NCBI GenBank assembly: GCA_033345275.1
Contig: JAWPOF010000007.1
Span: 21,760 to 85,759 of the forward strand
Length of the DNA: 64,000 nucleotides
Reading direction: 5' to 3'
Source: Alphaproteobacteria bacterium
GTDB lineage: Bacteria; Pseudomonadota; Alphaproteobacteria; Rs-D84
Below the pieces are notes generated by a model. The model was given only the letters and a program-made list of their open reading frames with translations, made no database searches and was not told the DNA's origin. A program made the position numbers and the translations under genes. This document shows positions 7,008 to 56,333 of the stretch, in pieces (the stretch's first letter is position 1; every line of letters begins with the position of its first letter).

Positions 7008-8261
7008 TCAGGATTTTTGTTTTTGTGCAAAACTGTAATCCATCATTAAATGATTTGGATTGTATTTTTTATTCATGATTGCCAAAGTATCTTCAACGAT
7101 TACCAATTCTTCGTTTGTTGGAATCATAAACAGTTTAACAGGACTGTCAGGTGTGCTGATGACGGTTTCACCTGCACCCTTTCTCGCAAGGGTTTCATTG
7201 TTCTTTTTAGTATCCAGCTTAATACCGATGTTTTCCAATCCTTCGCAGAATTTACCACGCAGATATTCATCGTTTTCACCAACGCCAGCGGTGAATACAA
7301 CTGCGTCAACACGTCCCAGTTCCGCCATGAATGCACCAATATATTTTTTTACATTGTGCACTTCCATATCAATGGCCAGACGGCAAGAATCATTTGTTGT
7401 TTTGTTTTCTTCTACATCACGACGGTCGGCAAAACATTCGGTTACCCCCTTCAGCCCTGAATCCTTGCTTAGATGTGTTTGCATTTGAGCTGGTGACAGT
7501 TTCAATTGTTCCATTACGTACAGAACAACCCCAGGGTCTAAATCCCCTGGACGTGTACCCATCGTCAAACCTGCCAACGGTGTCATCCCCAACGAAGTAT
7601 CAACCGATACACCATTGCGTATCGCAGTTGCAGATGCGCCCGAACCAATATGCATTGTAATCAAATTACACTGGTCAGCCGGTTTGCCTAACATTGCGGC
7701 CGCACGTTTTGACACGTACAGGTGACTGGTGCCATGAAAACCATATTTGCGTACACCCAATTCTGTATACCAGGCACGTGGCACCGCATAGCGATACGCA
7801 TAGTCTGGCATTGTCTGGTGGAACGCGGTGTCAAATACAGCAACCTGTTTCGCGTTTGGTAACAACTGTTTTGCGGTCATAATCCCACGCAATGCAGGTG
7901 GGTTATGCAACGGTGCCAGGGGCGATAATTTATCAATTGTCTTGATAACTTCGTCTGTGATTTCAACAGACGAGGCAAATTTATCGCCGCCCATAACGAC
8001 ACGATGACCGACACCGCCGATTTCATTCAGATCAATTGAAGCATCGCGCAACATGAACAAGACCACGTTTAATGCCTCGTCATGATTTTTCATGGATGTT
8101 TCTTTTTTTTGTTTAGTGCCGTCTGGGTATTTCTGGGTAACGAAAGAATCTGGCAAACCAATCTTTTCAACGTTACCGCCAACAATCGCCGTTTTGGAAT
8201 CTGCGTCAAAGACCTGATATTTCAGGGACGAAGAACCACAATTCAGTGCAAGTATATACAT
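7008..8261 (-). CDS. ackA: Acetate kinase (probable start at internal Met, MYILALNCGSSSLKYQVF)
   Basis: Conserved N-terminus LNCGSSS.KYQ, plus VGHRVVMGG, HNPPALRGI, AVFDTAFHQTMP motifs. Track ORF extends to 8348 but the family alignment supports the start at 8261. Confidence 0.9.
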   Translation of the reverse strand: MYILALNCGSSSLKYQVFDADSKTAIVGGNVEKIGLPDSFVTQKYPDGTKQKKETSMKNHDEALNVVLFMLRDASIDLNEIGGVGHRVVMGGDKFASSVEITDEVIKTIDKLSPLAPLHNPPALRGIMTAKQLLPNAKQVAVFDTAFHQTMPDYAYRYAVPRAWYTELGVRKYGFHGTSHLYVSKRAAAMLGKPADQCNLITMHIGSGASATAIRNGVSVDTSLGMTPLAGLTMGTRPGDLDPGVVLYVMEQLKLSPAQMQTHLSKDSGLKGVTECFADRRDVEENKTTNDSCRLAIDMEVHNVKKYIGAFMAELGRVDAVVFTAGVGENDEYLRGKFCEGLENIGIKLDTKKNNETLARKGAGETVISTPDSPVKLFMIPTNEELVIVEDTLAIMNKKYNPNHLMMDYSFAQKQKS

Positions 8262-8317
8262 AATAAAATCCTTTTTTTCTTCTTCGGCGGTCAGCATAGC
8301 AATGTTTTTTATATATT

Positions 8318-8890
8318 TCAATAATAAACTCGGAATAAAATGCGCCAATTTTCATCCGTCAATTCAGTCTTGTTCCCTGTATCGCGGTGCGCCGTCCAGT
8401 ATGTTTGTGTTCCAACCATCAGGCGCACATTTAATTCATTGATATTAAAGAAATAATTTACCAACGGGGACGCGTATTCGCCGATTCCAAACGCGCAGAC
8501 TTCATCGCCGGCAACATATCCCGCTTCGTCATTTTGGCAAACCAATGTCACGCGCACCATAGTTGGCATTTTGTCGCCACTAAATGCGCAGTTCACATAT
8601 GCGGTTTCGCTGTTCATTGGTACCATGTCCGATTCAACAATTGTAAATGGCGCAGGTGCGTGTTTAGCAAATAAATCCGTCCAAAATTCATCAGAAACCT
8701 CTGTTATATCAAATGTACCGGCGTTGGTTGCCGCGTCGTCTGCGCGTTGCAGGGCAAATCCGCCCAGTGTTTGCCCGTCGTGAACGCGCAACGTCTTGGC
8801 GTCTATATCCATTGTGATTTCGCCGGGCATACCGGTGAAACCGTCGTTTTGCGCGGTGGTGCCGCGACGCAATTGTAAAACACGTGTCAT
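8318..8890 (-). CDS. Phage tail-fibre/Mtd N-terminal-domain-like protein (orphan, 190 aa)
   Basis: N-terminus MTRVLQLRRGTTAQNDGFTGMPGEITMDIDAKTLRVHDGQTLGGFAL closely resembles, from memory, the N-terminus of Bordetella phage BPP-1 Mtd (MSTAVQFRGGTTAQHATFTGAAREITVDTDKNTVVVHDGATAGGFPL). This motif is also found in many tail-fibre proteins. The rest of the protein is short and unassigned. Confidence 0.5.
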   Translation of the reverse strand: MTRVLQLRRGTTAQNDGFTGMPGEITMDIDAKTLRVHDGQTLGGFALQRADDAATNAGTFDITEVSDEFWTDLFAKHAPAPFTIVESDMVPMNSETAYVNCAFSGDKMPTMVRVTLVCQNDEAGYVAGDEVCAFGIGEYASPLVNYFFNINELNVRLMVGTQTYWTAHRDTGNKTELTDENWRILFRVYY

Positions 8891-9012
8891 AACTAATCCT
8901 TTTGATTTTCATGAAAATAAAAAATCCCCACCACACAGGGCAGGGCACAAAAAACAAACGCCATCGTTCCCGATGACGCATGTTTACATTATATCACAAA
9001 TCGCAGAAAAAA

Positions 9013-11499
9013 TCAAGCTGCATATGAATAGCCCGACAAATAATCAGAAATGATTGTTTGCTTTTGCCCATCAAATTTTTCCTGGGCATTACCAGCCTTA
9101 ATCGGTTTCCAGTTATACATTTTACCCATGTGCGTGTTGCGACCTGTTTCCAGCATGTCCCAATATGCCATCAGTTCCATGAATTTATCTTTGTGGTCTT
9201 CGTCCCACTTGTCCATAACCTCGTTGCGTTTTGATATACGTTCGTTGATTTCTTCGATACTTTTGGTCGCGTTTTCCCACTTATTTATTCGATCTGTTTG
9301 TGCATTATTTCGATCAACCGTGTCATTATAGTTTTGCAATTCTTGTTCATATTGTTGCCCCATCTGTTGATCGGTTGCCCAATTTGGATTGCGCGTTATT
9401 TGTGCCAATTCGTTTGGAATCGCCTGTAATCTTTGTTGAATTTGCGCCAATTGATTCGCGTATTGGATTTTTTCATTAATCAATTCATGATTGCGCATAT
9501 CTATTTCCTGCTGGGAAGCACCAGGAATGTTTTGATTTTGTTGAATCTGAGCATCTAAATTTGCGATTTGTTGACTGATAGCCAGAACATTTTGATTAAG
9601 TGAATTCTGTTCCTGAATTAATTTATGATGGTTGTTATAGCGCTGAATCGCAGGATCTTTGGCGCGCTGGTCCAGGCGGGCTTTTTCTGCGCTCTCGGCG
9701 GTTCTGGCGTTCTCTAAATTTGTTTTTTGCTGTTTAAAGTTCACATCGGTAATAACCTGTTGACCGGGTTGCAAATTCTGATTTACATCATTTTTATTTT
9801 GGTTTTCTTGTTGAATTAATGTTTGGTCCTGGGCATTCATTGCGTTACGTCGCGCGTCCGCCGCCGCCCTGTCGGCTGAGTTTTGTGTTTCCCATTCGGA
9901 CTGTTTCTTTCCCAAGCGACCGCGGTGCCCCTTAAACTTGCTGCCCGACAGGTTGATTGCATTACCAACCATTGTGATACCATATCCGATACCCATAAAC
10001 GCGGTTTTAATACTTTTGTCCAGCGCCTTGGTAACAACTGCCATCCCCTCGTTTTTATTCCATGATAATTTGCCGTCTGAAAAGATGCTTAACTTTTCCT
10101 TGCCCATGGCATCCATGATCTTGCTGGTGGTATATCCGTATTTAATGACAGACAAAACCTCCATCGCAGTTTTAGCTTCATCCACCTTGCCATCACGGAC
10201 GGCAATCATAATCATCTCTTCGATAATTGCATGCATTTGGCGACCGTTGCGCAAGGCACCTTCGAACGCCTTGGGCATCGTGTTGGACAGCTCCCCCATG
10301 GTCTTTGCGAACCATTTGAAATGGTCGGTCGCCTTGGGCGATTTATACAATAACCCCTTTTCTATATCGCTCGCCTTGTCCAGAACGCCCTTAATCCCGT
10401 CAGTTGGTTTTACCTTAGCCTTGTGTATTGCGGCGACGATATTTTTTGCATTAGGCGAAAAATACAGCCGATCGCCCTTGAACTTTACATACTTTTCAAA
10501 TACATCTGCATATGTTTCATCCGCCCACTTGGAAACCTGTTGCCATGGGGTCAGTTTATCATCACGCTTTGGCGGGATATAATCTTTGCTGTTTTGGTCA
10601 TCATAGCCTGTCAGTTCTTTGGCGCGATCAAACGCAGTTCTTATCTTGTCGCTGGGGAATGCATCACGTGTTTTTTCTTCGCTGTACAGCCTGCGCAAGA
10701 TAATATCATACTCGCCATTTTTGAAATTAAGAAATTCCGCACTGCTTGCCAGATTAGTATCATCGTCTTCAAACCCAGATGAAATCTTGTCAAAATCACA
10801 ACCCTTAAAATCAATGGACACTAGCTCGGTTGTACTGGTACGGTAATAATCAAGATATTCAACCAGGTCTTTGAGTTGTTTTTGCAGTGTGGGATCGCTG
10901 TCGTATTTATATTTGCCGTCTTTTTCAGTAATTCCGCTTACCAGATTATCATAATCAATCAAGTTGTTTCTTGTCAAAAACACCCTGAAAAATCTTTCAT
11001 TATTTACGATAACGTCGCGCAACTTGGCAATTTCTAGTTTAGCATCTGGCTTTGCTTTTGTTGAATTGAATAATTTGCCCGCACCAAAATAATCATCCAA
11101 GAAATTTAGTGCCTTGTCGTTCTTGCCACCAAAATCAATTAAGCCTTCTAATTTCTTTTTATTCGCAGCCAATGCACGGAATGCACTGCGGAACTCTTTA
11201 AAGAATTTAATCCATTCTTCTTCCGTCAGATGAAAATCTGGACCATTTGGGTCCGGTAATGGCTTGGATTCCCAGTTGCCTTTAACCTGATGCATCAGGC
11301 TGTTGCGCCAGTCCTTCATGTGTCCACGAAAATCATCCTTGCCCAGATATTCCTGGTATTTTGCCATAACTTCAGCAGGCATCTTTTTTATACGCAACTG
11401 CATAAAGTATTGTAATAAAAAATTTTCCATTGACACATCGGCCATATTTGCACCTTTATCTATCCCATTTATTATAGTGCAAATTGCGGGGAATTTCAA
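9013..11499 (-). CDS. Large hypothetical protein with C-terminal Gln/Asn-rich coiled-coil region (possible secreted effector or phage-derived structural protein)
   Basis: 828-aa ORF (alternative start MADVSMENF at ~11448). The C-terminal ~270 aa is heptad-like and Q/N-rich (QQIANLDAQIQQNQN..., LAQIQQRLQAIPNELAQI). No recognisable enzymatic motif. Confidence 0.4.
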   Translation of the reverse strand: MKFPAICTIINGIDKGANMADVSMENFLLQYFMQLRIKKMPAEVMAKYQEYLGKDDFRGHMKDWRNSLMHQVKGNWESKPLPDPNGPDFHLTEEEWIKFFKEFRSAFRALAANKKKLEGLIDFGGKNDKALNFLDDYFGAGKLFNSTKAKPDAKLEIAKLRDVIVNNERFFRVFLTRNNLIDYDNLVSGITEKDGKYKYDSDPTLQKQLKDLVEYLDYYRTSTTELVSIDFKGCDFDKISSGFEDDDTNLASSAEFLNFKNGEYDIILRRLYSEEKTRDAFPSDKIRTAFDRAKELTGYDDQNSKDYIPPKRDDKLTPWQQVSKWADETYADVFEKYVKFKGDRLYFSPNAKNIVAAIHKAKVKPTDGIKGVLDKASDIEKGLLYKSPKATDHFKWFAKTMGELSNTMPKAFEGALRNGRQMHAIIEEMIMIAVRDGKVDEAKTAMEVLSVIKYGYTTSKIMDAMGKEKLSIFSDGKLSWNKNEGMAVVTKALDKSIKTAFMGIGYGITMVGNAINLSGSKFKGHRGRLGKKQSEWETQNSADRAAADARRNAMNAQDQTLIQQENQNKNDVNQNLQPGQQVITDVNFKQQKTNLENARTAESAEKARLDQRAKDPAIQRYNNHHKLIQEQNSLNQNVLAISQQIANLDAQIQQNQNIPGASQQEIDMRNHELINEKIQYANQLAQIQQRLQAIPNELAQITRNPNWATDQQMGQQYEQELQNYNDTVDRNNAQTDRINKWENATKSIEEINERISKRNEVMDKWDEDHKDKFMELMAYWDMLETGRNTHMGKMYNWKPIKAGNAQEKFDGQKQTIISDYLSGYSYAA

Positions 11500-11556: not shown

Positions 11557-12726
11557 ATGAAAAGATTGCTGATTTCTCTGTATGGATTTGCGTTTTTTAA
11601 CAAGTTTTTATTGCTGACCCCCGTCTATTCTATTTTTATGTTGGAAAACGGTTTAACTGATTTGCAACTGTCCACAATGTTTATAATTTCGGCACTGGGG
11701 ACAATTCTGGGCCAGGCACCGATTACATATATAACAAACCGTGTGGGACAACGATGGTCTATGATTTGTGGACAAATTCTAAAGGCGATTGCGATTTTAT
11801 TATGGCTGGTGCTGCCAACATATGTGGGATTTGTTGTCGGGATGTTTCTGTGGGGCGTTCAGGCCGGGTTTCGCAGTGTCGCGTTTGAAGGTCTGGTATA
11901 CGATTCTGTATCAGAATACGGTAAAAAACGCGAATATTCACGTATTCTTGGGCGCAAGGCCACGTTCGAGTCCATCGGTACAGCATTGTCTGCGTTTGGC
12001 TCGTTGTTGATGTTTATGGGATATGATTGGGTGACCTGGGCATCGGTAATTGCGATTTTGATTTCTATGGCTTGTTTGCTGTTGGTTCCTTATCACAAAA
12101 ATCTTGCCACACAACAGATGAAATCTGTACCTATGCGTAAACTTATGCGCATAGGTGTCAAGGTGTGCCTTAAAACCCCATGTCTATTGTCGATAATGTT
12201 GTTGACTTTGTTGGCGGCCAATATCCCATATCTGGACGATTTTTTAAGTCCCATAGGGTTGCAAATTGGAATACCGACTGAATATGTTGGGATTGTATCT
12301 TTGTTCTTGTTGGGGTGCGCAACAATTGGTCAGCGATTTGCGTACAAGTTTGCAAACATATCTGAAAACTTGATATATTCGCTTATCGGTGTGGTCGGGC
12401 TGCTGTTCATTGGTTTTGGCGTTGCATATAATGTTGGCATGTTGTGGCTGATGGGAATCGCGTACATGTTGTTTTATGGGCTGTATACGTTATTATACTC
12501 TCAGTTTCAGCACATGGTGCCGTCGCGCCATCGTTCTGTTGTATTGTCTTTTTATACGACCATAAACTATGTAATATATATGATTGTTTGTGGCATTGTT
12601 GGGCTGGGCGCAACTTTTGGCAGTTGGCGTTTCAGCATAGTCATTCTGGGCAGCATGATGTTAGTGCTGTGCCTGTGGGCGTTTTTATTCCTGCGTGGCC
12701 GTTGTCAGATTCATCGCCTGGATTAA
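11557..12726 (+). CDS. MFS-type transporter (12 predicted TM helices)
   Basis: 389 aa, hydrophobic throughout, two six-helix halves with loop motifs such as GxxxDRxGRR-like (NRVGQRWS). Confidence 0.6.
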   Translation: MKRLLISLYGFAFFNKFLLLTPVYSIFMLENGLTDLQLSTMFIISALGTILGQAPITYITNRVGQRWSMICGQILKAIAILLWLVLPTYVGFVVGMFLWGVQAGFRSVAFEGLVYDSVSEYGKKREYSRILGRKATFESIGTALSAFGSLLMFMGYDWVTWASVIAILISMACLLLVPYHKNLATQQMKSVPMRKLMRIGVKVCLKTPCLLSIMLLTLLAANIPYLDDFLSPIGLQIGIPTEYVGIVSLFLLGCATIGQRFAYKFANISENLIYSLIGVVGLLFIGFGVAYNVGMLWLMGIAYMLFYGLYTLLYSQFQHMVPSRHRSVVLSFYTTINYVIYMIVCGIVGLGATFGSWRFSIVILGSMMLVLCLWAFLFLRGRCQIHRLD

Positions 12727-12768: not shown

Positions 12769-13440
12769 ATGAAAATAAATATTCGCACAATACTTTTAAA
12801 GTCATTACCATATTTGCTGTCAATTGCAGGTGGAATTATTTTGTATACGGGTGCCATAGATAATGCCCCAAATGACAATATTCGTGACCTGGTGATAAAT
12901 GTGTCGGCATCACTGCTGTCGATTCCATTGGTTTTTTTGCTGTATGACTATACGAATTCGCGTGTTGCAAATCAGATGAAGCGTACGATGATTAACAGCA
13001 TGACGGACAAGTTAAATGTATTGATGATGAATATTATTGGGTTGTTGCGGGACTCGATGGGTGTGCACAGCAAACTAACGACTGAAAACTTGAACAGAAT
13101 GTTGATTTTACACACAACAGAAATTTCAAAACGACTGAAAATAACGCCGCGAATTTTGGAAAAATTGCACGAATATCATAACGATTTGGATACATTGTTG
13201 TTTCGCAACAGTCAAAATTCTGTGCTGAATGCCGAACAGGTACAAATTCTGTCAGGACTAGTACGCGATATGACCCACCTTATAAACGAAAATAAATTTC
13301 GCCGTAATCGGCACCTGTCTGCAAAATACACAGAATCAATGATGGGGCGAATTTTAGATTGGATGGAATCTGATAATGTTGCGGCGATGAACTTGGCGCA
13401 GCATATATCAGAAACGACCGAGACAACGGACAAAAAATAA
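12769..13440 (+). CDS. Hypothetical membrane-anchored protein
   Basis: 223 aa, two N-terminal TM segments followed by a soluble helical region. No recognisable motif. Confidence 0.35.
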   Translation: MKINIRTILLKSLPYLLSIAGGIILYTGAIDNAPNDNIRDLVINVSASLLSIPLVFLLYDYTNSRVANQMKRTMINSMTDKLNVLMMNIIGLLRDSMGVHSKLTTENLNRMLILHTTEISKRLKITPRILEKLHEYHNDLDTLLFRNSQNSVLNAEQVQILSGLVRDMTHLINENKFRRNRHLSAKYTESMMGRILDWMESDNVAAMNLAQHISETTETTDKK

Positions 13441-17665: not shown

Positions 17666-18532
17666 TTACATCACGATCTGTAATACTTTATTTACATTTC
17701 TGTCGGGTGATTTTCCCATTTCTAAATCTTCTTTGATATCATATAACAGATTTACTACAGATTGAAAACGCTGTCTTTCTGGGAAATATACGTCTCCAGT
17801 GTCGCCATATCCTGCCAGCAATTCTTTTGCACCATTGCCATAGTAATAGTGCATGTCGCGTGATGGTTCGGCATATCCCGCTTCGCCAAAGTCAATAAGC
17901 CCCACGATTTTTTTTGTGTTTGTATCGAACATCATGTTGCCAAAATGCAAATCACAGTGTGTCAAAACTGGTTTTACAGGATATTGTTCAGATAAGTATT
18001 TATATCTGTCGCGCACGGCGTTGATGTGCTGAATCTGCTCATCTGTGAATTGTTTTTTTACTATGTCAGGAAAGTATTCGTCAAACACTTCTAAGCTGTC
18101 TGTGTAATGTAATGGTGCATCTTGCAACCAACTGTAATCATTCTCCAGATTATGTAATTCGCGTGCAATTTTACCGATTTGACGTAATATATCGGATTTT
18201 GTTTCTTCGTCAAAAGAATCGTGCATTTCCTGGGTGTATGTCGTGCCGTGTACCAATGTTTCGCCAATGATGTTTCGACCTGACTTGTCCTTTTTGTGAT
18301 ATAAAATTTCTGGAACCTCAAAGCTCAACTTGCCTTTTAGAAAGTTTAATACTTTGATTTCTTTGTCAGGATTGTTAAATGGCGCGTCTTCTTTTTTAGG
18401 TATTCTGAATACAACGCTGTCATTAACCAATACAGCGATGACATTTCGTCCCGAACCTATTTTTTTTATACTTTTTATTTCTATTTCAGGAAACGTTTCG
18501 ATGATGGTTTCCTGGATTTGTTCAGTTGTCAT
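17666..18532 (-). CDS. Phosphotransferase-family protein (APH / choline-kinase-like kinase fold)
   Basis: Brenner motif HCDLHFGNMMFD and the downstream IDFGEAGYAEPSRD (DFG-like) typical of the aminoglycoside phosphotransferase / CotS / choline kinase family. Confidence 0.75.
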   Translation of the reverse strand: MTTEQIQETIIETFPEIEIKSIKKIGSGRNVIAVLVNDSVVFRIPKKEDAPFNNPDKEIKVLNFLKGKLSFEVPEILYHKKDKSGRNIIGETLVHGTTYTQEMHDSFDEETKSDILRQIGKIARELHNLENDYSWLQDAPLHYTDSLEVFDEYFPDIVKKQFTDEQIQHINAVRDRYKYLSEQYPVKPVLTHCDLHFGNMMFDTNTKKIVGLIDFGEAGYAEPSRDMHYYYGNGAKELLAGYGDTGDVYFPERQRFQSVVNLLYDIKEDLEMGKSPDRNVNKVLQIVM

Positions 18533-18914
18533 TTTTTTATTCCTGTGTTTTTAATTGCCAAAACACCCCAGAAATTCGTATGAATTTACTGGCTGTTTCG
18601 CAACAAATTATTGCGTGATTATATTTTTTTGAGATTTTGCGGCGGGTCAGTGCAATTGCACTATATTGACACATGCATTATAAGGTATGATATTGCAAAA
18701 GTCAAGATATGTGTTTCGGGGGACAAAAATCGTTTTTTACAAATGCACAACTTCTATGTAAGGAAATTGTGATGCGATGTATTCGGCGGCCAGTCTTCGG
18801 TGGCATTGGTGTGCGGTCTTTTCTGTGCACATCAGGCATATGCGGTCCAGTTCGTCCGGATTGCGCCCCGTCAATGGCGCACGCCCCGCAATCAGGCGTC
18901 TGTAAATCGGTTCG

Positions 18915-19736
18915 GTGTCGGCCCAGGTTGCCCCGGACAGAAATGTTGATACACGTGATGTAGAATGGTTAAAAAAATCACTGACCCAGTTAGATTGTTA
19001 TGAACCCGATACCCGTGCCAGCGAAAGTGCCGACAATCCAAACCCGTATCCGAACCAGAAGCTGTTTGATGCGATTGAAAAGTTCAGAAAGTTACAAAAA
19101 ATCAAAGAGCGTGGCGCTGTCAAACCCGGCTACTGGACAGAAGTAAAAATAAATCAAGAACTGGAAAAGAAACAAAGCGAGAAAAAAGATATGAAAGATA
19201 TTGATACAAACAAAGTGTCCGATATGAAATTTGAACAAGCATACAATAAATTACAATAACCCGAAGGTGGCTATACAGACGGTAAAGACCAAGTTGATGA
19301 TGAACCAACCAACATGGGAATTAAACAAAGCACGCTGGACAGATACGCTAACACGCATCCAGACAAAAATTTCCCAGCAGATGTAAAATATTTAACAGCC
19401 GCACAGGCCAAAGAAATTTATAAAAACGAATATTGGGACAATACAAGAATCCCAGAAATCAAAAACGACAGAATACCTGATGCAGTTTTTGATATGAATG
19501 TGATGGGAGGTGCTGGGAAGACAGTTCAACGTGCACTAAATTCTTTCTTGGACGCAAACTTGGTTGTTGATGGCGCAATAGGCAGCGAAACAATTAAATC
19601 CATAAATGCTATTCCCGATAACGCGGTCAACAAATTTATGGTCGCACTAAAATCTGAAAGAATAGATTACTTAAAACGCACAAAAAACTGGGTAACGGCA
19701 AAAAACGGTTGGTTGAAAAGAGTAAATAAATACTAA
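18915..19736 (+). pseudogene. GH108-like lysozyme / PG_binding_3 protein interrupted by an in-frame TAA (19257-19259) immediately before the catalytic EGGY motif
   Basis: Track ORFs 18915-19259 and 19314-19736 are in the same frame. Read through the TAA, the sequence gives ...FEQAYNKLQ*PEGGYTDGKDQVDDEPTNMGIKQST..., matching the GH108 N-terminal motif (F..A...L.hEGGY...DPGGETN.GIT). The C-terminus VDGAIGSETIKSIN resembles a peptidoglycan-binding domain. Confidence 0.6.
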
Positions 19737-20186
19737 TTACTGTCTAAGCCATATTCCTTCAAGTGTTGCTTGCATGCCACAAAATGCACTAAATGAATCT
19801 GTATTGATAAAATGCAGATTCATTTTATCTTCTGACTCCATGTGAAACAATATACCAACAGGAATAAAATATTCCGTATCTGTCTCTCTGTCATATTGAT
19901 ATTTTTTGCTGTTGTATTCTGCCTTATCCCAGCTGATTTATATTTTACCTTCAACATCACAGAGTCGCCGAACAATATACGCAAAGTTTTTACCATGTTC
20001 GCTATTATTTAAATTTGGCGTATTGTTGTATTTGTGACAACGTAATCAATCATAGGTTGTATATTGCGTTTGCGTTTAATTTTTGCTGGATTTTGGCGAC
20101 GGTATAAGAAATAATTCAACCTGGATTTGAAAGATATTTATTAAACAACCGAATAAAAGGAGGGATGAATTGGAACATAAAATATT

Positions 20187-20411
20187 ATGGGCGCAATTGA
20201 AAAGCTGGCACAGGCTCATGGGTTAACCTGCTCAGGCTTAGCAAGGCTCAGTGGCTTGGATGCCAGTACCTTTAACAAAAGCAAGCAGTTTTCACCGGAC
20301 GGTACACCGCGTTGGCCATCATGTTGTACGATTGCAAAAATTATACGCGCAACAAACACTACATTAGTAGAATTTGCCCAATTATGCATGTCGGGGCAGG
20401 GGGAAGAATAA
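20187..20411 (+). CDS. XRE-family helix-turn-helix DNA-binding protein (74 aa)
   Basis: HTH_3-like segment GLTCSGLARLSGLDASTFNKSK. Small size typical of Cro/CI-type regulators. Confidence 0.55.
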   Translation: MGAIEKLAQAHGLTCSGLARLSGLDASTFNKSKQFSPDGTPRWPSCCTIAKIIRATNTTLVEFAQLCMSGQGEE

Positions 20412-20425
20412 ATGAAAAACAAGAA

Positions 20426-21736
20426 TCATTTTATAATATCTCCGGACTTGATATATTCCGCATCTGTTTTTTGCAAATGTTTCTGTGCGCGTTTGGCATA
20501 TATTTTAGCTTCGTCTTTTTTTCCAATCATATTATTGTATTCAGCCATTGCCCATGCTGCGCGCCCTGGGTCGTCGTCGCCATATGCACGCGCTATCACC
20601 CAGTACGTCAGTGGCGCGGGCTCGATTAATATCGCGCGTTTACATAATTCGATTGCGCGCGCCGTATCGCCTGTTTTTTTTCTTTCGCCCAGCACCAGTG
20701 CCAACGCCGTCTGAATCTGGGGGGCTTCCCCCGCTAAAACCAATGATTTTTCATATGCTTCAACACTGTTGTCATAGTGTCCAAATTGATATTCTATATC
20801 CCCCAGCAACTCGTAAAAATACGGATTTTTTGGATGACGTGCTATTAATGTCCCAGTCCCCACACGCGCCCCGTCCAGATTGCCCTGACGCATATTTGCA
20901 ATTGCGCGCGCATAGATGGCAGCATCTGATTTATCTGAACTGGGATATTTTTCACGCACTTGGTTTGGTGTATCCAAATATCCTATCAGCTTTGCCCGCA
21001 CCAGTTCATATTCTGCCCTATTTATTTTGTTCCATTTTTTAGCAGTGTTTATTTGTGCAATCTGTTCTCGTACATTATTCAGTCTTTCTGTGGTCAGTGG
21101 GTGATTTACGCGATTTGGGTTGATTCTGGACTCCATAACCCCTGTCAGTTCTTGCATTTGTTCAAATACTGTGACAAATCCATCAGGGTTCTGATTGGCA
21201 CGCACCATCAAATCCACACCCAGATTATCCGCAATTCGTTCCTCGTCGCGCGTAAATGCCAGCATAGATTGTTGCGCAACCCCAGACGAACCCGCTAAAA
21301 CTCCGGCCCCCAGTGTCGGATTGCCCCCCGCCACCATCAGACCAACGCCCAACGCCTGAATCAACATAGTGCGCTTTATTTCCGCCGCCATGCGGTCGGA
21401 CATCTGGGCCATATGTCCGCCAAGTGTGTGTCCAAATTCATGCGCAATTACGGCCTGTAATGCATTTGGTGTTTTTATTTGTTTTAATAAACCGGTATAA
21501 ACATAAATATCTTCGCCCCCCATAACAAATGCGTTAAAGTCATCATCTTTGACAATATGAATTTTCATCCGATTTTCAGGGATGTTTGCCGCTTGTGCCA
21601 ATGGCATCATCAGTTTGGTTAATACGCGTTCCGTTTCTGTGTCGTTAATCAATGATGCACCCCACACAGGAACAGCGCATAATGTTATCAGCAAAGATAC
21701 AAAAAATTTACGCACCCAGCACCACCCCACGGTCAA
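20426..21736 (-). CDS. bepA: M48-family zinc metalloprotease with C-terminal TPR repeats (BepA/YfgC-like periplasmic protease-chaperone)
   Basis: Signal peptide, HEFGHTLGGH (HExxH) motif, M48 fold, then a TPR-like helical region (AYEKSLVLAGEAPQ..., YAKRAQKHL). Confidence 0.8.
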   Translation of the reverse strand: MTVGWCWVRKFFVSLLITLCAVPVWGASLINDTETERVLTKLMMPLAQAANIPENRMKIHIVKDDDFNAFVMGGEDIYVYTGLLKQIKTPNALQAVIAHEFGHTLGGHMAQMSDRMAAEIKRTMLIQALGVGLMVAGGNPTLGAGVLAGSSGVAQQSMLAFTRDEERIADNLGVDLMVRANQNPDGFVTVFEQMQELTGVMESRINPNRVNHPLTTERLNNVREQIAQINTAKKWNKINRAEYELVRAKLIGYLDTPNQVREKYPSSDKSDAAIYARAIANMRQGNLDGARVGTGTLIARHPKNPYFYELLGDIEYQFGHYDNSVEAYEKSLVLAGEAPQIQTALALVLGERKKTGDTARAIELCKRAILIEPAPLTYWVIARAYGDDDPGRAAWAMAEYNNMIGKKDEAKIYAKRAQKHLQKTDAEYIKSGDIIK

Positions 21737-27042: not shown

Positions 27043-28131
27043 TTATGCAGCATTCTGTTTGAATTGCCCAATTTGCCACATCTGTATTTGTTGTTGGAAT
27101 TTCAACTGCAATTGTGCACGTTGTTCCGCGCGGATTTCCAGACGCTGTTGCGCGACCTGAAATTCCTTGACCTTTTCTTCGCTTTTAACAATATTCTGCT
27201 GTTTAACATTGTCGCGAACCGCGGGCAGGGCGCCTGATTGCTTGACCGGTGCCGCGACCGCCTTGGGCATATGATGAACGATTGGTTTTTGTTTCTGTGC
27301 AACCACGGGCTTGACCGCGGGGTGTTCTTGCTTTTTCTCGATTGGCTTTGCCACGGCGGGCTTTGCAACCACCGTCGGCACTTCGACCGGTTTATCGGCA
27401 ATCGCGGTATTTGGGCGTTTTACCGCGTCGCGCACCATCGCAAACGCGCCCGATTGCTGTGCCGGCTGTGCAACCGATTTTACAGAATTTTGTGCCACTT
27501 GTTGTGGCGCCTGTGGCAATGCGTGCATTGGTGCCTGGGCTGGTGCTGACCCCGGTTGATGTGTGGGTTGTGCCTGTTCTGGGGTGTTTTGCGCCATCGC
27601 CATCACGGGTTGTGATTGCGTCTGTGCCATCGCCTGTGGCATCGCAGATGTATGCATTTGCGCTTTTTCCTTTGATTGCGTGGCAACCAGTTCTTCGACC
27701 CGTTCATTATATCGCGCCAGTATCAGATTAATCTTGTCCATGCTTTCGCGAATCATGCGTTCGCCATGTGCGCGTAATTTTTTGATTTCTTGGTCATCCG
27801 GGTTAATTACATTATCGCGCGCGCCATGCGTCATAATAACGCGAGACCAGTATTTTTTATGCGCATCACATACATTTTTCAAATATTTTGCCGCGGGGTT
27901 CTTTTTATTTTTAGTATCACAAAACGCGCCACATTGTGCCAATGCGGTCTGCCATGCCCGCCCCAGTGAATGTTTATTAGTCCAATTTCGCCATGCGAAC
28001 CCTGTGAACATTTGTAGATACGCCGCCGCTAATTCTTTGCGGTCAAATGGCGATACGATTTTTGCGATTTGTGGGTCAACGTGGATAATAAACTTTTCTT
28101 GGTTTTCAGCGATATTTTGTTGTGTATTCAT
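27043..28131 (-). CDS. Hypothetical protein with long Ala/Pro/Gln-rich low-complexity central region
   Basis: 362 aa. N-terminal ~150 aa globular (FTGFAWRNW..., CGAFCDTKNKK). Centre is a QAPMHALPQAPQQVAQ / AKPAVAKPIEKK-type repeat. C-terminal coiled coil. Confidence 0.35.
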   Translation of the reverse strand: MNTQQNIAENQEKFIIHVDPQIAKIVSPFDRKELAAAYLQMFTGFAWRNWTNKHSLGRAWQTALAQCGAFCDTKNKKNPAAKYLKNVCDAHKKYWSRVIMTHGARDNVINPDDQEIKKLRAHGERMIRESMDKINLILARYNERVEELVATQSKEKAQMHTSAMPQAMAQTQSQPVMAMAQNTPEQAQPTHQPGSAPAQAPMHALPQAPQQVAQNSVKSVAQPAQQSGAFAMVRDAVKRPNTAIADKPVEVPTVVAKPAVAKPIEKKQEHPAVKPVVAQKQKPIVHHMPKAVAAPVKQSGALPAVRDNVKQQNIVKSEEKVKEFQVAQQRLEIRAEQRAQLQLKFQQQIQMWQIGQFKQNAA

Positions 28132-28289
28132 GATAGAACCTCTTGATTAAAGTACTGCGGTTCCCCCACAGCAATTTTATATAGGTCGCCCGTCATAACT
28201 TTTCAAGCCCCCCATGTCAAGAAAATTTATTTTTTGACAAAGTTCCTATATTGCGCAAAAATAAGTTCGTTCATATCGCAAAAACATAC

Positions 28290-28350
28290 TGTTGCCAATA
28301 ATGGGCGGTGTGGATATGAACCCACATCTTGCCAATAATGGGGGTGTGGC
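28290..28350 (+). promoter_or_regulatory. Two ~21-bp direct repeats (TTGCCAATAATGGGCGGTGTGG / TTGCCAATAATGGGGGTGTGG) ~40 bp apart in the OMP promoter region
   Basis: Seen directly, 30-90 bp upstream of the 28380 start codon. Candidate transcription-factor binding sites. Confidence 0.45.
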
Positions 28351-28379
28351 ATTTCATCGAAAACTAAGGAGTTAAACAG

Positions 28380-29414
28380 ATGAAAAAAACTATCAGTGCA
28401 GCAGTTGCATTGTCGATATTCGCGGCACCTGCGATTGCGGCCAACCTGGAACACCCATTGTATATGCCATACAAGGGCGCGGTGTATTCCAAAACATCTG
28501 CGGGTGTTATGTACAAAATCGCAGATGATTCAGACGCACATGTTAAAAAGAATCATGATGGCGCAACAGAATTTCCAATCTGGCGTGTTCACGAAGAATT
28601 GGGATACGGTATCTTGGACAACCTGGAAGCGTACGCGAAATTCGGTTATACCCACGACGGCGACATTGATCGCAAGGGTATGCACCTGGGGCGTGCGGGT
28701 TTGAAATACCGTGCAATTAACACATATTCTGGTTGGGTATGGGATTTGTATGCAGACGCGCAATTGGGCGGAATCAGTGAAATGTCTGGTTCATTTGCGG
28801 CAAATGGTTTCACATACGATAACTATTCAAATGGTCGCTGGGGATTCCACGTTGGGACCCAGGTGGGCAAGGTGTGGAATAAATTCAGCACTGCTGGATT
28901 CATAGAAGTCCTGCGCACATTCGGCAATGACAACAACAGCATTGAACTGATTGCTATTGACACAGAAAGCCCATTGGGCATCCTAGGGCGTACTCAGTTG
29001 ACTGACTTGGGTTTCCCAGATGAAATCTCGGTTGACTTGAAATCTACAACCGAAGTTAATGCCGGTTTGAAAATGTTCTATCAATTGGATAATCGTTGGT
29101 CATTCGGTGGTGGTTTAACATATAAACACCATGCAGACAATGGCGTAGAAGGTTTAGCATCAGAATTAAAAACATTGCCTTCACCATATGCCGAGCAACA
29201 GGCGATGTTAGTAAACGGTTTATTAGACAAAGTTGCCGACATGAACGACGGGTTTGATGAATATATCATTAACCTGACTGCGGCATATCAGTTGACCGAT
29301 ATGATCCAGGGTGTCATCTATGGCGAGTACACATTCGATACGGCGCATGAACAATCCCAGAATGGCACAGATGTCAAGGCTGAAGCGGGTGTTCGCTTGA
29401 ATGTTCAGTTCTAA
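28380..29414 (+). CDS. Outer-membrane beta-barrel protein (porin-like surface protein), paralog A
   Basis: Signal peptide MKKTISAAVALSIFAAPAIA, shared paralog motif E.PLYMP..G..YSKTS.G, alternating beta-strand pattern, C-terminal RLNVQF (aromatic terminal residue). Confidence 0.65.
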   Translation: MKKTISAAVALSIFAAPAIAANLEHPLYMPYKGAVYSKTSAGVMYKIADDSDAHVKKNHDGATEFPIWRVHEELGYGILDNLEAYAKFGYTHDGDIDRKGMHLGRAGLKYRAINTYSGWVWDLYADAQLGGISEMSGSFAANGFTYDNYSNGRWGFHVGTQVGKVWNKFSTAGFIEVLRTFGNDNNSIELIAIDTESPLGILGRTQLTDLGFPDEISVDLKSTTEVNAGLKMFYQLDNRWSFGGGLTYKHHADNGVEGLASELKTLPSPYAEQQAMLVNGLLDKVADMNDGFDEYIINLTAAYQLTDMIQGVIYGEYTFDTAHEQSQNGTDVKAEAGVRLNVQF

Positions 29415-29460
29415 TTAAACGGAACTAAAAAACAAAAAATAAAACTAACATATATTGGAC

Positions 29461-29488
29461 AAAATCCCGCCATCCAGCGGGATTTTTA
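29461..29488. terminator. Bidirectional terminator between convergent OMP paralogs (aaaatcccgccatccagcgggatttt)
   Basis: Hairpin plus flanking A/T runs. Confidence 0.75.
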
Positions 29489-29512
29489 TTTAATATATTT
29501 GGTAAATTTTTG

Positions 29513-30673
29513 CTAGAATGTTAAATTCAATCGAATTCCCAGTTCTGCTTGAACATCAGCATTGTTCCGGAATATATTGAACGTGCATTCACTATAGGCC
29601 CCAATTTGTACAATGTCCGTTAATTGATATGCGGCCGCCATACTAAAAGTATATGTATCATACCAACCAAAATTGCTTATATATGACAATATTTTATTTT
29701 TGGTATTTATTTGCATTCCAGCTGTTGGCCAGCCATCTAAAAACTGTTGGGATGGAACCTTTGGGGGTGGGGTTACAGATAAGATAACACCCTTTTGCTT
29801 GTGCATAAATTTAAACCCGCTGCCAAATGACCAGCGATTATCATTCTGATAAAATATATTAAACCCCAGGTTATAATTTGTTCTGTCATCAAGTCTAACA
29901 GAAATCTCGTTTGGGAAGCCAAGTATATCCAATTTAGGTCGTATCATAACGTTATATACTGGGCGCATATCAACCTGTATCAGTTTTATTTTGTAGTCGT
30001 CATTGCTGAAATTTCGCTCAACCCCAACAAAAGCCGAAACACTGAACTTTGACCAAGTCTTGCCCAATTGTGTCCCAACATGAAGTCCCCGACTGCCATC
30101 GTAACAATTGTCCGGGATCAGCCCATGTGATGTTATTGAGCCACGCATTGCGCCAAATCCATTAGAATGGGCATCTGCATATAAATCCAATGTCCACCCA
30201 GACATTGTATCAATCGCGCGAAAATTCAAGCCAGCCAAAGCAAATTGAATGCCAGATTTCTGGGTATTGTCATCGCGCATATAGTCGATTTTTCCGTAGA
30301 GTTTCAGTGCGTTTAAAATGCCGATCCCCAGTTCTTCTCGTGCACGCCAGCTGGTTTTATTACGGGGGGTATCATCAGATAAAACGAACGTCGGTCCCAG
30401 TGACGTCTTGGAATATATTGTTCCTGGTTTAGGCATATAAAGCGGACTTTCCGCATTGGCGCTATGATCCATTTTGTTCTGGGGGGTATTAGATTTTTCT
30501 GTCTGTACGGTTCGATCTGTATTGCCTGACAAACCATATCTTGGTTGCTTATATACTTTGTTGCGTTGCACATATGCCCAATCATCGTCTGTGGATGTAT
30601 TATAGGGGGCGGCCGCGACCATGTGGGGGACAAATAAACACAATACAGCAGGTACAAAGAAATTTTTTTTCAT
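29513..30673 (-). CDS. Outer-membrane beta-barrel protein, paralog B (begins with an A8 tract in codons 2-4)
   Basis: 386 aa. SPLYMPKPGTIYSKTSLG motif shared with 28380-29414. C-terminal IRLNLTF. Signal peptide MKKNFFVPAVLCLFVPHMVAA. Confidence 0.65.
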   Translation of the reverse strand: MKKNFFVPAVLCLFVPHMVAAAPYNTSTDDDWAYVQRNKVYKQPRYGLSGNTDRTVQTEKSNTPQNKMDHSANAESPLYMPKPGTIYSKTSLGPTFVLSDDTPRNKTSWRAREELGIGILNALKLYGKIDYMRDDNTQKSGIQFALAGLNFRAIDTMSGWTLDLYADAHSNGFGAMRGSITSHGLIPDNCYDGSRGLHVGTQLGKTWSKFSVSAFVGVERNFSNDDYKIKLIQVDMRPVYNVMIRPKLDILGFPNEISVRLDDRTNYNLGFNIFYQNDNRWSFGSGFKFMHKQKGVILSVTPPPKVPSQQFLDGWPTAGMQINTKNKILSYISNFGWYDTYTFSMAAAYQLTDIVQIGAYSECTFNIFRNNADVQAELGIRLNLTF

Positions 30674-34748: not shown

Positions 34749-35742
34749 CTTTACCAAATAATTGTTTGCCCGTTGCCCGCATTCGTTGGACGTCGATATC
34801 GTTACCAGATACCAGTTGTTCGGGGCATGGGACCTCGGCGCCAGCTATTGCAGCATTGATGGCGTTATTTATTGCGTTTTGTTCCGCAGTAAAAATTATT
34901 TTTCCATTTTGTGTCAATTGTTCAGAATTGTTTTTATAGCCATAGCTAAATCCATGTTCTGCGCCATTTGTGGTATTTAATTTTCCTGCAATAAAAACAT
35001 TTGCATAGTCTTTGCCCATAAAAGCAGGTGCCAAATTATCCTGATGCAAAGCAATCTGTGAAAATTTATCATAAAAATTCAATGTGTCATCAGACGCAGA
35101 CATAAAATTTACAGTAGTGAACATAGCGTTTTCCAGCGGTGCTGTTGGATTGTGCTGAATTGCCACCACTGCGGCCAGACATCGTTTAATTGTCGCGTCA
35201 TCAAAGCCCGCATTTTGCATATTCAATGCAGCCATTCGGGCCAGTTCATTTGTCACCACCGCTCCATGGCAGTGCGAATAAATAATTAAATTACGCATAT
35301 TTTGCATGGTTGCGCCCGCGTCCCCATATACAATGCGAGGTTCAATCAGTTCATCATACACATCTTCGATATAGCCTGGGGTCGGTTCGTTTTCGTTTAT
35401 ATTGGCCAACTGTTGTTCTTTGCGTCGAGCTGCAACCTGATCTGTATCCAATGCAACCCTGCGCCCAGCGCGTCGAAAAATATCAGCCTTGACCAACATT
35501 GGGTCCAGTGATTCAAATTTATACACCGCCGCATACATGTTAATTTCAGACCTGGCTTGAATAATGCTGTCCAGGCGTTCCATGTACCCCAGCGCCTTAG
35601 CCTCGCTTACGGTCAGCGCCCCACCCAGCACCAGCAGTGCCGGTTTGTCTGTCGGGATATTTCCTGCATACACAAAGTGTTTGCCATTTGTGCTGGGCAA
35701 ATATTTTATGATCTGTGCGCTGCTGCCAACATATTGTGTCAT
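34705..35742 (-). CDS. Hypothetical protein (345 aa)
   Basis: No confidently recognisable motif. Convergently overlaps the helicase 3' end by ~44 nt. Confidence 0.35.
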   Translation of the reverse strand: MTQYVGSSAQIIKYLPSTNGKHFVYAGNIPTDKPALLVLGGALTVSEAKALGYMERLDSIIQARSEINMYAAVYKFESLDPMLVKADIFRRAGRRVALDTDQVAARRKEQQLANINENEPTPGYIEDVYDELIEPRIVYGDAGATMQNMRNLIIYSHCHGAVVTNELARMAALNMQNAGFDDATIKRCLAAVVAIQHNPTAPLENAMFTTVNFMSASDDTLNFYDKFSQIALHQDNLAPAFMGKDYANVFIAGKLNTTNGAEHGFSYGYKNNSEQLTQNGKIIFTAEQNAINNAINAAIAGAEVPCPEQLVSGNDIDVQRMRATGKQLFGKVNRAKQSPKHVHQK

Positions 35743-56242: not shown

Positions 56243-56333
56243 GGAAATTTCCTCTATTGTTAACGTGGGGCAATATACACTAATATTGCCCCAATTTCAA
56301 CCGATTTTTATTATTTTTTATGTTTTTAGTAAT

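Follow-up and report, generated by a model that had tools for sequence, protein, structure and literature searches.

The 190-aa reading frame at positions 8318..8890, on the minus strand of the window (the whole 64-kb stretch of DNA analysed, about 7% of a roughly 0.9-Mb genome), is interpreted as the gene of a phage-type tail fibre, and as an old, domesticated host gene of Rs-D84 rather than a decaying prophage fragment; we assign to this reading a probability of about 0.85. The coordinates of this frame, and those of the 828-aa frame upstream of it (9013..11499, minus strand, from a TTG), were confirmed. By alignment of 49 homologues, the true start of the longer gene was placed at the ATG at 11445 (MADVSMENF..., 810 aa), and the gene is called big810 here. 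The two genes are flanked on one side by ackA, co-directional and downstream of the 190-aa gene, and on the other by a divergent MFS gene (11557..12726, plus strand). The start of ackA is at 8261, and not at the TTG at 8348, and therefore this gene does not overlap with the 190-aa one. The features of the locus are:

7008..8261, minus strand: acetate kinase gene ackA (Pfam Acetate_kinase, E=4e-147)
8293..8321, minus strand: predicted promoter of ackA, TTGAAA-N17-TGcTATGCT (promoter scan)
8318..8890, minus strand: mini tail-fibre gene, 190 aa and stop (ORF, homologue family, AF2 model, dN/dS)
8321..8650, minus strand: beta-sandwich tip domain, residues 81-190 (profile search, alignment)
8651..8749, minus strand: linker, residues 48-80, two short helices, with the conserved motif FDI..V.DEFW (AF2, alignment)
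8750..8890, minus strand: Mtd_N domain, residues 1-47, putative trimerisation and attachment adaptor, a beta-prism in BPP-1 Mtd
8897..8900, minus strand: Shine-Dalgarno AGGA, 6 nt before the ATG (sequence)
8926..8979, minus strand: leader hairpins, each followed by a U-run (8979-8958 and 8945-8926), terminator-like (fold, scan)
8988..9016, minus strand: predicted sigma-70 promoter, -35 TTGATT (9016-9011), -10 TATAAT (8993-8988) (scan)
9013..11445, minus strand: big810, neighbour, a lineage-specific 810-aa alpha-helical protein (homologue alignment)
9016-9204, minus strand: conserved C-terminal module of big810
9205-9909, minus strand: variable Q/N-rich coiled coil of big810
9910-10089, minus strand: most conserved segment of big810, Gly-rich and mildly hydrophobic
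10090-11445, minus strand: conserved helical N-region of big810

The likeness of the N-terminus to tail fibres of the Mtd type, noted in the first-pass annotation for the block RRGTTAQNDGFTGMPGEITMDIDAKTLRVHDGQTLGG (residues 8-44 of the protein), was borne out by profile searches. Pfam Mtd_N (PF18454) matches residues 6-41 with an E-value of 1e-11, over profile positions 2-37 of 37; the score of 45 bits lies above the curated gathering threshold of 26.3 bits that defines membership. The domain is present in all of the 120 homologues listed, and was also recovered by a PHROG search. By using the family profile, BPP-1 Mtd (1yu0 and others) was found over residues 1-77 (E=1.2e-15). The N-terminus of the family is invariant, M-x-[RK]-[VI]-L-Q-[IL]-R-R-G (here MTRVLQLRRG...), and so are the N-domain residues common to the family and Mtd; all together, the family alignment contains 23 invariant columns, and W70, in the linker, is invariant. 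Full-length homologues of about 190 aa reach down to 45% identity, the distant members having a longer, Gly-rich linker. The AF2 model has a mean pLDDT of 89, with linker helices at residues 50-56 and 67-77 and a drop to 56 near residue 55. Fold matches to BFVD tail fibres reach a TMq of about 0.45 over roughly 150-230 alignment columns.

The protein had been regarded as an N-domain only; its C-terminal 110 residues turned out to be a phage tail-fibre tip domain, carrying the motif P..L.C...EAGY..GD.V...TN...R...HK.TG..T.T..NW. A profile built from residues 58-190 matches 1147 representative proteins (E<=1e-3), within a family defined here by alignments A3/A4, and retrieves proteins with phage-fibre N-termini at E-values down to 4e-22; the N-termini of these relatives match tail-fibre PHROGs. 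Residues P, C, V, G, T and W are invariant in alignment A4. The domain is found on 45 IMG/VR contigs and always sits at the extreme C-terminus, ending 0-8 aa before the stop in 43/43 cases. In one of them (L165), it closes a 465-aa ORF directly behind the major head, tail and distal tail proteins. The 190-aa protein shows both the match to the motif profile and the extreme C-terminal place that the domain occupies on phage tail proteins. No match to the tip domain was found in Pfam, nor any sequence match in PDB. Since the C-terminal half is a tip domain, the gene encodes a complete minimal fibre.

Small fibres or tip proteins of phages, such as the L165 ORF and the ORFs of about 157 aa in L181, L188 and L201, share the same C-terminal beta-sandwich and motif, and some are equally small, with an adaptor of about 55 aa followed by the tip; unlike the mini-fibre, the phage versions examined carry other N-terminal adaptors and lie within structural modules. 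BPP-1 Mtd (PDB 1yu0) has in common with the mini-fibre the Mtd_N domain, but the mini-fibre is half its size, has a tip of another family, lacks the C-type lectin variable domain and a DGR (TR/VR, RT), and is encoded by a chromosomal gene with no surrounding phage. Mtd is a trimer located at the ends of tail fibres (PMC2408619). Because of the homology with Mtd, the 190-aa protein is probably a homotrimer, assembled through its N-domain, and its tip probably binds a ligand, likely a surface glycan or protein.

In order to evaluate the phage context, the ORFs of at least 180 aa in the window were scanned against Pfam, leaving out 55688-56242, 56241-56795, 61135-61839, 62720-63610 and overlapping antisense ORFs. 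Those scanned belong to housekeeping families or have no match, and, as originally noted, no C-type lectin domain, reverse transcriptase (RT) or intact phage gene is found among them. The sole phage-type item in the window is a truncated GH108/PG_binding_3 ORF, 10 kb from the fibre gene; a Phage_lysozyme gene occurs in the flank of one relative. Capsid, portal, terminase and tail genes are absent from the window and from the examined flanks of relatives, and a prophage, GTA or tailocin module at the locus was rejected, as no structural genes are adjacent in these regions. No direct or inverted repeat in the window involves 8318-8890, and the gene tables of the relatives' flanks, three of which were covered, contain no RT. 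An Mtd-type DGR variable protein was rejected in turn, as neither a C-type lectin fold nor TR/VR repeats nor an RT was found in the window or these flanks, and the suggestion of a degenerate DGR target was dropped with it.

Rs-D84 is a reduced-genome gut order (Candidatus Enterousia and relatives); several of these MAGs are labelled Rickettsiales by their NCBI submitters, and their placement is uncertain. The genomes are smaller than 1 Mbp, without TCA cycle or respiration, and a dependence on partners, via cell contacts, has been proposed (PMC12306168). In 46 of the 62 species-level Rs-D84 genomes, deepest clades included, the fibre gene (mtd190) is found at the same chromosomal position, and the order big810->mtd190->ackA recurs in GTDB species loci and in about 70 metagenome loci, with housekeeping genes on the flanks both in the window and in relatives. 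The reading frames are intact, at 184-197 aa, across saturated divergence, and dN/dS values of 0.07-0.21 indicate purifying selection. The full-length protein, combining Mtd_N and this tip, was not found on any IMG/VR viral contig. The gene has been deleted about nine times, leaving relics behind, and is missing from 16/62 species, one of them a sister of this genome; in L032 promoter and hairpin are kept and the ORF is gone, and in L044 an internally deleted, in-frame version of 119 aa is found. A tandem pair of fibre genes is present in the L210 context, in a genome of 53% GC.

Order-wide conservation, purifying selection and a conserved predicted promoter of its own argue against the earlier view of the gene as an orphan or prophage remnant. 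A functionless relic, left by an ancient prophage or DGR target and persisting through slow decay and conserved synteny, would account for the isolation from phage genes, the missing functional assignment, the many losses and the internally deleted allele; it is nevertheless very improbable, in view of the intact frames and their dN/dS, the 23 invariant columns, a promoter and RBS conserved in 52/52 loci, the absence of CLec fold, TR/VR repeat and RT, and a coding density of 81-94%, with no reported pseudogene accumulation, in Rs-D84 genomes (PMC12306168). A conserved non-phage operon with an assigned function, named in the first-pass annotation as grounds for refutation, describes the locus only by half: it is conserved and non-phage, but neither forms an operon nor has such a function.

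The fibre gene travels as a cassette, composed of predicted promoter, hairpin with U-run, and ORF. The predicted promoter has a 17-nt spacer, an extended -10 element, with the TG at 8996-8995, and 10/12 consensus matches, and its -35 box, TTGATT, contains the TGA stop of big810. The anchored alignment gives the consensus TTGatT-N17-TgTG.TATAAT, and the motif T.TG.TA[TCA]A[AG]T is found in 52/52 spacers with mtd190, and in 1/16 of those without. The same predicted promoter occurs in the unrelated L210 context and in most metagenome loci, and in L017 an inserted gene parts big810 from the promoter, leaving the promoter-fibre gene unit whole. Terminator-like hairpins begin about 9 nt after the -10 box in the window, and a hairpin with a T-run follows the -10 box in 52/52 loci, at a median distance of 11.5 nt; in L210 the hairpin precedes the tandem pair. 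The stem sequence varies by clade while pairing is kept, the predicted fold of the leader has an energy of -30.8 kcal/mol (z=-3.55), and no Rfam family matches the leader. At the Shine-Dalgarno position, AAAGGA is conserved in relatives.

A strong promoter with a terminator-like hairpin placed immediately after it suggests, as far as the sequence goes, that output may be gated by read-through; the U-run could also be a mere product of AT-rich DNA, and the hairpin could serve to stabilise the 5' end of the mRNA or to terminate the upstream gene. In lambdoid late control, the strong promoter PR' is followed by a close terminator, tR', and is read through only with the antiterminator Q. The cassette resembles this system in predicted architecture, a near-consensus promoter and a terminator-like hairpin preceding a virion structural gene, although neither a Q-like gene nor a Q-binding element or pause site was recognised for it. 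On the other side of the fibre gene, no minus-strand terminator-like site is predicted between 8318 and 8261, the next being at 6974-6949, and co-transcription with ackA is probable. ackA also has its predicted own promoter, whose -35 box overlaps the mini-fibre stop codon and which is kept in other genomes without the fibre gene and in L008, where the fibre gene was lost and the ackA promoter junction stayed in place. No neighbour of the cassette is more constant than ackA, and the mtd190->ackA adjacency persists where big810 is inverted or missing. The consensus sigma-70 promoter and the probable co-transcription look more like constitutive cellular expression than phage-timed expression.

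The Q/N-rich coiled coil attributed to the upstream protein was found as described, with 31% Q+N over ORF residues 530-765 and long helices in the AF2 model. Its likeness to tape-measure proteins or fibre shafts did not hold: big810 has no relatives in Pfam, PHROG, NCBIfam or viral contigs, its fold matches are of generic coiled-coil type, and a role as tape measure or fibre shaft was rejected for lack of phage family homology and of any occurrence on phage genomes. By hydropathy, neither a signal peptide nor a TM segment was recognised; the N-terminus is hydrophilic, and the 19-residue Kyte-Doolittle mean peaks at 1.09, in AFMGIGYGITMVGNAINL, below the usual cut-off of about 1.6. The proposed pairing of the two genes was not supported either. 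Because big810 persists where the fibre has been lost (16/16 genomes, with an unchanged C-terminal motif), the two are judged from their sequences to be neighbours and not an obligate pair, big810 being a lineage-specific protein unrelated to the fibre.

The same data bear on a two-protein fibre, in which big810 would be the stalk or scaffold and the mini-fibre an exchangeable tip on its conserved C-terminal module. In most genomes the gene order is that of shaft, then tip; the C-terminal module comes after the coiled coil, some highly conserved, low-pLDDT segments of big810 resemble interaction sites, and Mtd_N may attach tip modules to a fibre, by analogy with Mtd (PMC2408619). We nevertheless hold such an assembly to be distinctly unlikely: besides its retention in fibre-less genomes, big810 has the opposite orientation in L251, L265 and L280, and is missing from the side of the fibre gene in L210, L211 and L281; a terminator-like hairpin separates the genes and the fibre has its own predicted promoter; the coiled coil is predicted to form antiparallel helical hairpins and not a long trimeric shaft; and big810 lacks an export signal or TM segment. 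Adjacent genes also show discordant dS (0.12 for big810 vs 1.0 for the fibre in L010/L011) and identities (42% vs 73% between the window and L033), from which the alleles of the two genes appear to reassort.

As to its mode of action, the likeliest target of the mini-fibre would be particles, phage or phage-like, that are assembled inside the cell or leave it, since no export signal is found and the adaptor used by phages is kept in all members; we hold this proposal tentatively, at rather less than even odds, and the explanation as a whole, a domesticated mini-fibre directed at particles, only slightly more firmly. The mini-fibre would be incorporated into, or would cap, tails carrying an Mtd_N docking site, and the adsorption of such tails would be altered. 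Loss in scattered lineages, the tandem duplication and the discordant dS of adjacent genes fit an accessory gene interacting with phages; trimerisation by itself could account for the conserved N-domain. A surface role seems less likely than this particle-directed action. As a host adhesin or lectin, a released or displayed trimer would bind a partner cell, host mucus or a glycan, which would suit the partner-dependent, contact-based lifestyle proposed for Rs-D84 (PMC12306168); the tip is of a putative receptor-binding class, and the strong predicted promoter and probable ackA co-transcription suggest an abundant, constitutive protein. MAT fibres of Bdellovibrio bacteriovorus are a precedent for cellular fibres of phage type, being likewise phage-tail-fibre-like trimers with variable tips, put to the bacterium's own use, the recognition of prey, in a cell-dependent organism (PMC10769870). 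MAT proteins are 600-1100 aa long and form a 21-member family with a common N-domain of about 130 aa, and 21/21 have signal peptides; by description, the mini-fibre is set apart by its 190 aa, its phage Mtd_N adaptor and its single copy, and no member of its family has a signal peptide or other hydrophobic leader, a lipobox or a recognisable secretion signal. Its C-terminus lies within the beta-sandwich, as in phage homologues, and is therefore not a T1SS signal. The missing signal peptide may be compatible with non-classical release (lysis, vesicles); with the gene also dispensable in 16 species, an adhesin is rated as a lesser possibility.

Still less probable is that the gene supplies, from an unlinked position, the fibre or spike of a phage-like particle encoded by the host (GTA, tailocin or contractile injection system), with the main cluster located elsewhere. 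In RcGTA, fibre and spike genes lie outside the main GTA cluster. The tail fibre rcc00171 and the head spike fibre rcc01080 of Rhodobacter capsulatus are separately numbered genes, and are also alphaproteobacterial, phage-derived, free of export signals and partly dispensable (PMC10218006, PMC7296036); this organism too is an alphaproteobacterium, a missing export signal is normal for particle components, the truncated GH108 ORF and the relative's Phage_lysozyme gene would fit, and so would the repeated losses, head spikes being dispensable for low-level transfer (PMC10218006). Compared by description, RcGTA fibres belong to a known particle and regulon, whereas the mini-fibre has a constitutive-looking promoter and no particle genes in view. 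Its consensus promoter and ackA read-through are unlike a tightly restricted GTA regulon, such reduced genomes would need to retain a 15-kb structural cluster, and the Rickettsiales label of several MAGs, of uncertain placement, lies outside the known GTA clade. A more specific version of particle-directed action, which we consider improbable, is that the cassette is a host-encoded decoy fibre, switched on by phage infection and poisoning phage assembly for the benefit of the population. Before infection, the strong promoter would make only a short, terminated leader RNA; a phage late-gene antiterminator, or another infection cue, would permit read-through, and the mini-fibre, made alongside phage tail proteins, would fill the Mtd_N docking sites of nascent tails, so that progeny would get a wrong or blunted receptor-binding tip. 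Such a cassette would be kept even in genomes below 1 Mb, and lost where cognate phages are absent. To our knowledge, a decoy fibre encoded by the host is without precedent. PADLOC-DB 2.0 contains no defence model matching the 190-aa protein, and gave for big810 only a chance ZorA coiled-coil match (E=0.32).

Known bacterial reuse of phage tail parts includes GTAs, tailocins, injection systems and the MAT fibres of Bdellovibrio. The present case differs from these in that one fibre of 190 aa stands alone, no particle genes being in view; in that its leader of predicted promoter and hairpin, which travels with it, is very well conserved; and in that it is fixed for an order of bacteria with genomes below 1 Mb, where little persists without use. 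About 1150 representative clusters of the tip domain are without annotation, none in Pfam or PDB, and the family could improve the annotation of receptor-binding proteins in viromes. One small protein and one promoter are a compact target, easily expressed and tested. Should phage particles be the target of the protein, this would represent a host-phage interaction of a new type; an adhesin would instead provide a handle on the attachment of uncultured, partner-dependent gut bacteria.

The first-pass annotation had placed a protein with a phage tail-fibre N-terminal domain, and a Q/N-rich neighbour, between ackA and an MFS transporter gene. This arrangement was confirmed by the ORFs, Pfam matches, a profile match and the Q+N content. 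The genes concerned are:

from 7008, with its start at 8261, minus strand: ackA, co-directional with the two genes that follow
8318-8890, minus strand: the mini-fibre ORF, 190 codons
9013-11499, minus strand: the big810 ORF (Q/N-rich coiled-coil protein), 828 codons
11557-12726, divergent, upstream of big810: MFS transporter gene, assigned by Pfam

Alignment with 48 homologues identifies the ATG at 11445 as the big810 start (MADVSMENF...), for a protein of 810 aa.

The proposed similarity of the 190-aa protein to the N-terminal domain of Mtd, the major tropism determinant of Bordetella phage BPP-1, was upheld by profile searches. The protein matches Pfam Mtd_N with E=1e-11 and 45 bits (threshold 26.3), the family profile matches BPP-1 Mtd over residues 1-77 (E=1.2e-15), and residues 1-54 match a PHROG 'tail protein'. 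The AF2 monomer model (mean pLDDT 89) predicts a small beta domain at the N-terminus, followed by two short helices and a beta-sandwich running from residue 84 to the end.

The C-terminal part, or tip domain, has no Pfam family, and a search by sequence for a solved relative or structure returned none. Its profile (A3, residues 58-190) was compared with 1.84 billion representative proteins, yielding 1147 matches at E<=1e-3. Beyond the family of about 190 aa, the domain is mostly C-terminal in proteins of 150-1000 aa, several of which have N-termini classified by PHROG as tail-fibre or tail-protein, and one motif is common to all the relatives and to the window protein (alignment A4). The domain occurs on 45 IMG/VR contigs, and its end lies 0-8 residues before the stop codon in 43/43 cases; in one viral locus (L165) it closes a 465-aa ORF located directly after major head, tail and distal tail proteins. 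Phage versions of about 157 aa, with a different short adaptor, also exist. When the whole 190-aa sequence was used as a query against viral contigs, matches never extended beyond residue 103, and the exact combination of Mtd_N and tip was found only on bacterial chromosomes. To our knowledge, the tip-domain family is undescribed.

Full-length families of both mini-fibre and big810 are large, and come only from uncultured gut or rumen Alphaproteobacteria. With each GTDB species represented by one genome, a scan located big810 in 76 loci, whose titles are mostly Candidatus Enterousia or uncultured Alphaproteobacteria/'Rickettsiales'; the closest one (L008) shows 78% identity for big810 and 97% for ackA. 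These bacteria are members of the order Rs-D84, whose genomes are mostly smaller than 1 Mbp and lack the TCA cycle and respiration, features that point to a partner-dependent lifestyle (PMC12306168). The order p223 <- MFS <- | -> big810 -> mini-fibre -> ackA recurs in the GTDB loci and in about 70 further metagenome loci; p223, a 223-aa ORF whose synteny with MFS and big810 holds throughout the order, has hydrophobic N-terminal stretches. Pairwise Nei-Gojobori dN/dS values, which are rough estimates, range between 0.07 and 0.21 for the mini-fibre, 0.05 and 0.35 for big810, and 0.02 and 0.09 for ackA, and on this basis the mini-fibre and big810 genes are judged to be real and constrained. Three loci are filed among 'Bacteroides fragilis'/'Bacteroidales bacterium' records: L041 (CAVGNU010000004.1) carries the full Rs-D84 MFS-big810-fibre-ackA block, while L069 and L071 (JAFGUD01...) are contigs of about 2.4 kb with big810 only. 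Mis-binning or mislabelling of the contigs probably explains these records.

The big810 stop is followed by a 122-nt spacer with, in order, a promoter, two hairpins each with a U-run, and an AGGA ribosome-binding site (RBS). The predicted promoter is TTGATT-N17-TGaTATAAT, and its -35 includes the big810 TGA stop. All 52 spacers that precede a mini-fibre gene contain the extended -10 motif, versus 1/16 spacers from genomes without the gene, and in each of the 52 it is followed by a hairpin and T-run, starting at a median of 11.5 nt downstream. Alignment anchored at the -10 produced the consensus TTGatT-N17-TgTG.TATAAT; the leader stems vary in sequence among clades, with pairing retained. In two relatives (L001 and L017) an extra 239-aa gene sits between big810 and the promoter, and the promoter remains next to the fibre gene. 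Since this insert leaves the promoter-fibre link intact, promoter and hairpin are assigned, from sequence comparison, to the fibre gene. The inserted gene (6881-7600 in L001, a roe-deer MAG) encodes a coiled-coil protein with only a sub-threshold DUF2203 match, and another locus (L018, 8410-8892) carries a GC-rich non-coding insert of about 480 nt in the same place; the stretch that separates big810 from the cassette of promoter, hairpin and ORF accepts insertions.

Two further loci carry tandem mini-fibre genes (L210, 7330-8618; L211, 4408-5696), of 219 and 205 aa with an 11-nt spacer, behind a single copy of the same promoter-hairpin-RBS leader. Here the locus has about 53% GC and is surrounded by gatB, MiaB-like, M23 peptidase, tatC, lolA, recJ and PBP genes, with no big810 or ackA nearby. 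Sequence prediction found no terminator-like site between the fibre gene and ackA; a predicted ackA promoter (TTGAAA-N17-TGcTATGCT) overlaps the fibre stop codon, and is kept in genomes without the fibre. No known RNA element was recognized in the leader, the best candidate being a sub-threshold chance match to BTnc201 (22.8 bits versus a gathering score of 105). A terminator-like hairpin within about 10 nt of a near-consensus promoter could gate expression, by analogy with lambdoid late operons; it could also stabilize the mRNA 5' end, or terminate transcription of the upstream gene as well.

Presence of the fibre gene was counted in the 62 species-level loci with both the big810 end and ackA on the contig. 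The gene is present in 46, and the remaining 16 have only a spacer of 80-200 nt. On an approximate ackA neighbour-joining tree, the loci without the gene are spread over about nine separate positions, and the gene is present on the deepest branches. The pattern points to ancestral presence and repeated loss. Deletion is confirmed by relics in three relatives. In L032 the spacer between big810 and ackA is an 'empty' cassette, in which promoter and hairpin are fused to the ackA promoter with no ORF; L044 (6007-6366) has an in-frame 119-aa allele without residues ~46-120; and L008, the sister of the window genome, has kept the junction at the ackA promoter. The first two are decay intermediates. 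Adjacent genes also differ up to ten-fold in dS in three pairs of loci (L010/L011, L016/L017, L014/L054): values are 0.12 for big810 versus 1.0 for the fibre in the first pair, and 1.65 for MFS versus about 0.1 for its neighbours in the second. Such discordance suggests recombination mosaics, with frequent homologous recombination at the locus, or chimeric MAG assemblies.

Searches of Pfam, PHROG and NCBIfam assigned big810 to no family. Residues 530-765 of the ORF are 31% Q+N, and AF2 predicts long helices there. The gene is found in every locus, and the 16 that lack the fibre are no exception. Its orientation is reversed with respect to the fibre in L251, L265 and L280, and in L210 and L281 the fibre has no big810 next to it. 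Viral contigs yielded no big810 relatives, and the protein has no TM segment, a hydrophobic Gly-rich segment being too weak to count as a transmembrane anchor. This set of observations argues against a phage origin for big810 and against an obligate partnership with the fibre. The suggested tape-measure or fibre-shaft role, in particular, found no family, viral or fold support. Dependence of the C-terminal motif (LMAYWD.LE.GR, unchanged throughout) on the fibre was rejected, the motif being equally conserved in fibre-less genomes, and big810 showed no homology to the 514-aa protein encoded next to the cassette in L210. The most conserved parts are ORF residues 301-340 and 441-520, which partly have low pLDDT in AF2. 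The motifs FSDGKLSWNKNEG...AFMGIGYGIT..GNA and Y.PPKR.DELTP.QQ (9910-10089 and 10480-10600; residues 471-530 and ~301-340) have pLDDT <50. Conservation combined with low pLDDT is commonly seen in binding or oligomerisation motifs, and hints that these segments may be interaction surfaces.

Within the 64-kb window, the prophage-remnant reading is rejected: Pfam assigned the window ORFs of at least 180 aa (four unscanned) to housekeeping families or to none. A degenerate DGR target was likewise discarded, as the window has no TR/VR-like repeat, its scanned ORFs include no RT and the protein has no CLec fold; PADLOC matched no known defence system. Sizeable ORFs (223-386 aa) without a Pfam family lie at 12769-13440, 27043-30673, 34705-35742 and 43172-44203, and are further lineage-specific unknowns of this genome of about 0.9 Mb. 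The ORF at 47709-48620 (minus strand) matches Phage_integrase and Phage_int_SAM_1. It is flanked by a SIMPL-family gene and PNPase, after which comes tryptophanyl-tRNA synthetase; with the two-domain make-up of XerC/XerD-type recombinases and housekeeping neighbours, it is not taken as prophage evidence. An ORF-poor stretch of 1.9 kb (18532-20426), with strong AT skew (0.405 at 19001-19500), contains one further feature:

19314-19736, plus strand: 140-aa ORF, matching Glyco_hydro_108 from profile position 24 on, and weakly PG_binding_3

Positions 1-23 of the profile are absent, and the ORF is read as a truncated phage-endolysin-type muramidase. The stretch may be a decaying mobile-element remnant, about 10 kb from the cassette.

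Mtd is a trimer at the ends of tail fibres, where it acts as receptor-binding protein (PMC2408619); by homology, the mini-fibre would form a homotrimer and bind a ligand. We tentatively favour, with a probability of roughly 0.35, an action on phage or phage-like particles, because an export signal is absent, and the phage attachment adaptor kept, in every family member, and because the gene behaves as an accessory one, with loss, duplication and allele shuffling. A surface adhesin resembling the mosaic adhesive trimer (MAT) fibres of Bdellovibrio comes next as a possible but doubtful role: all MAT proteins have signal peptides (PMC10769870), unlike the mini-fibre family. That the protein belongs to a GTA or tailocin encoded elsewhere in the genome is rather unlikely; the fibre genes of the Rhodobacter capsulatus GTA (PMC10218006) offer a comparison. 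A tip for big810 is still less probable, and the claim of an obligate pair fails on the fibre-less loci and the inverted or separate arrangements. A dead remnant is hardly credible; the orphan or remnant status first considered is not supported, given the recurrent gene order and the constraint on the gene.

Domesticated phage fibres are already known; for a cassette that encodes a lone 190-aa fibre and is fixed in genomes below 1 Mb, we know of no description. In the mini-fibre, these bacteria carry a whole minimal tail fibre of phage origin, constrained, order-wide and equipped with a promoter, in a non-phage chromosomal context.
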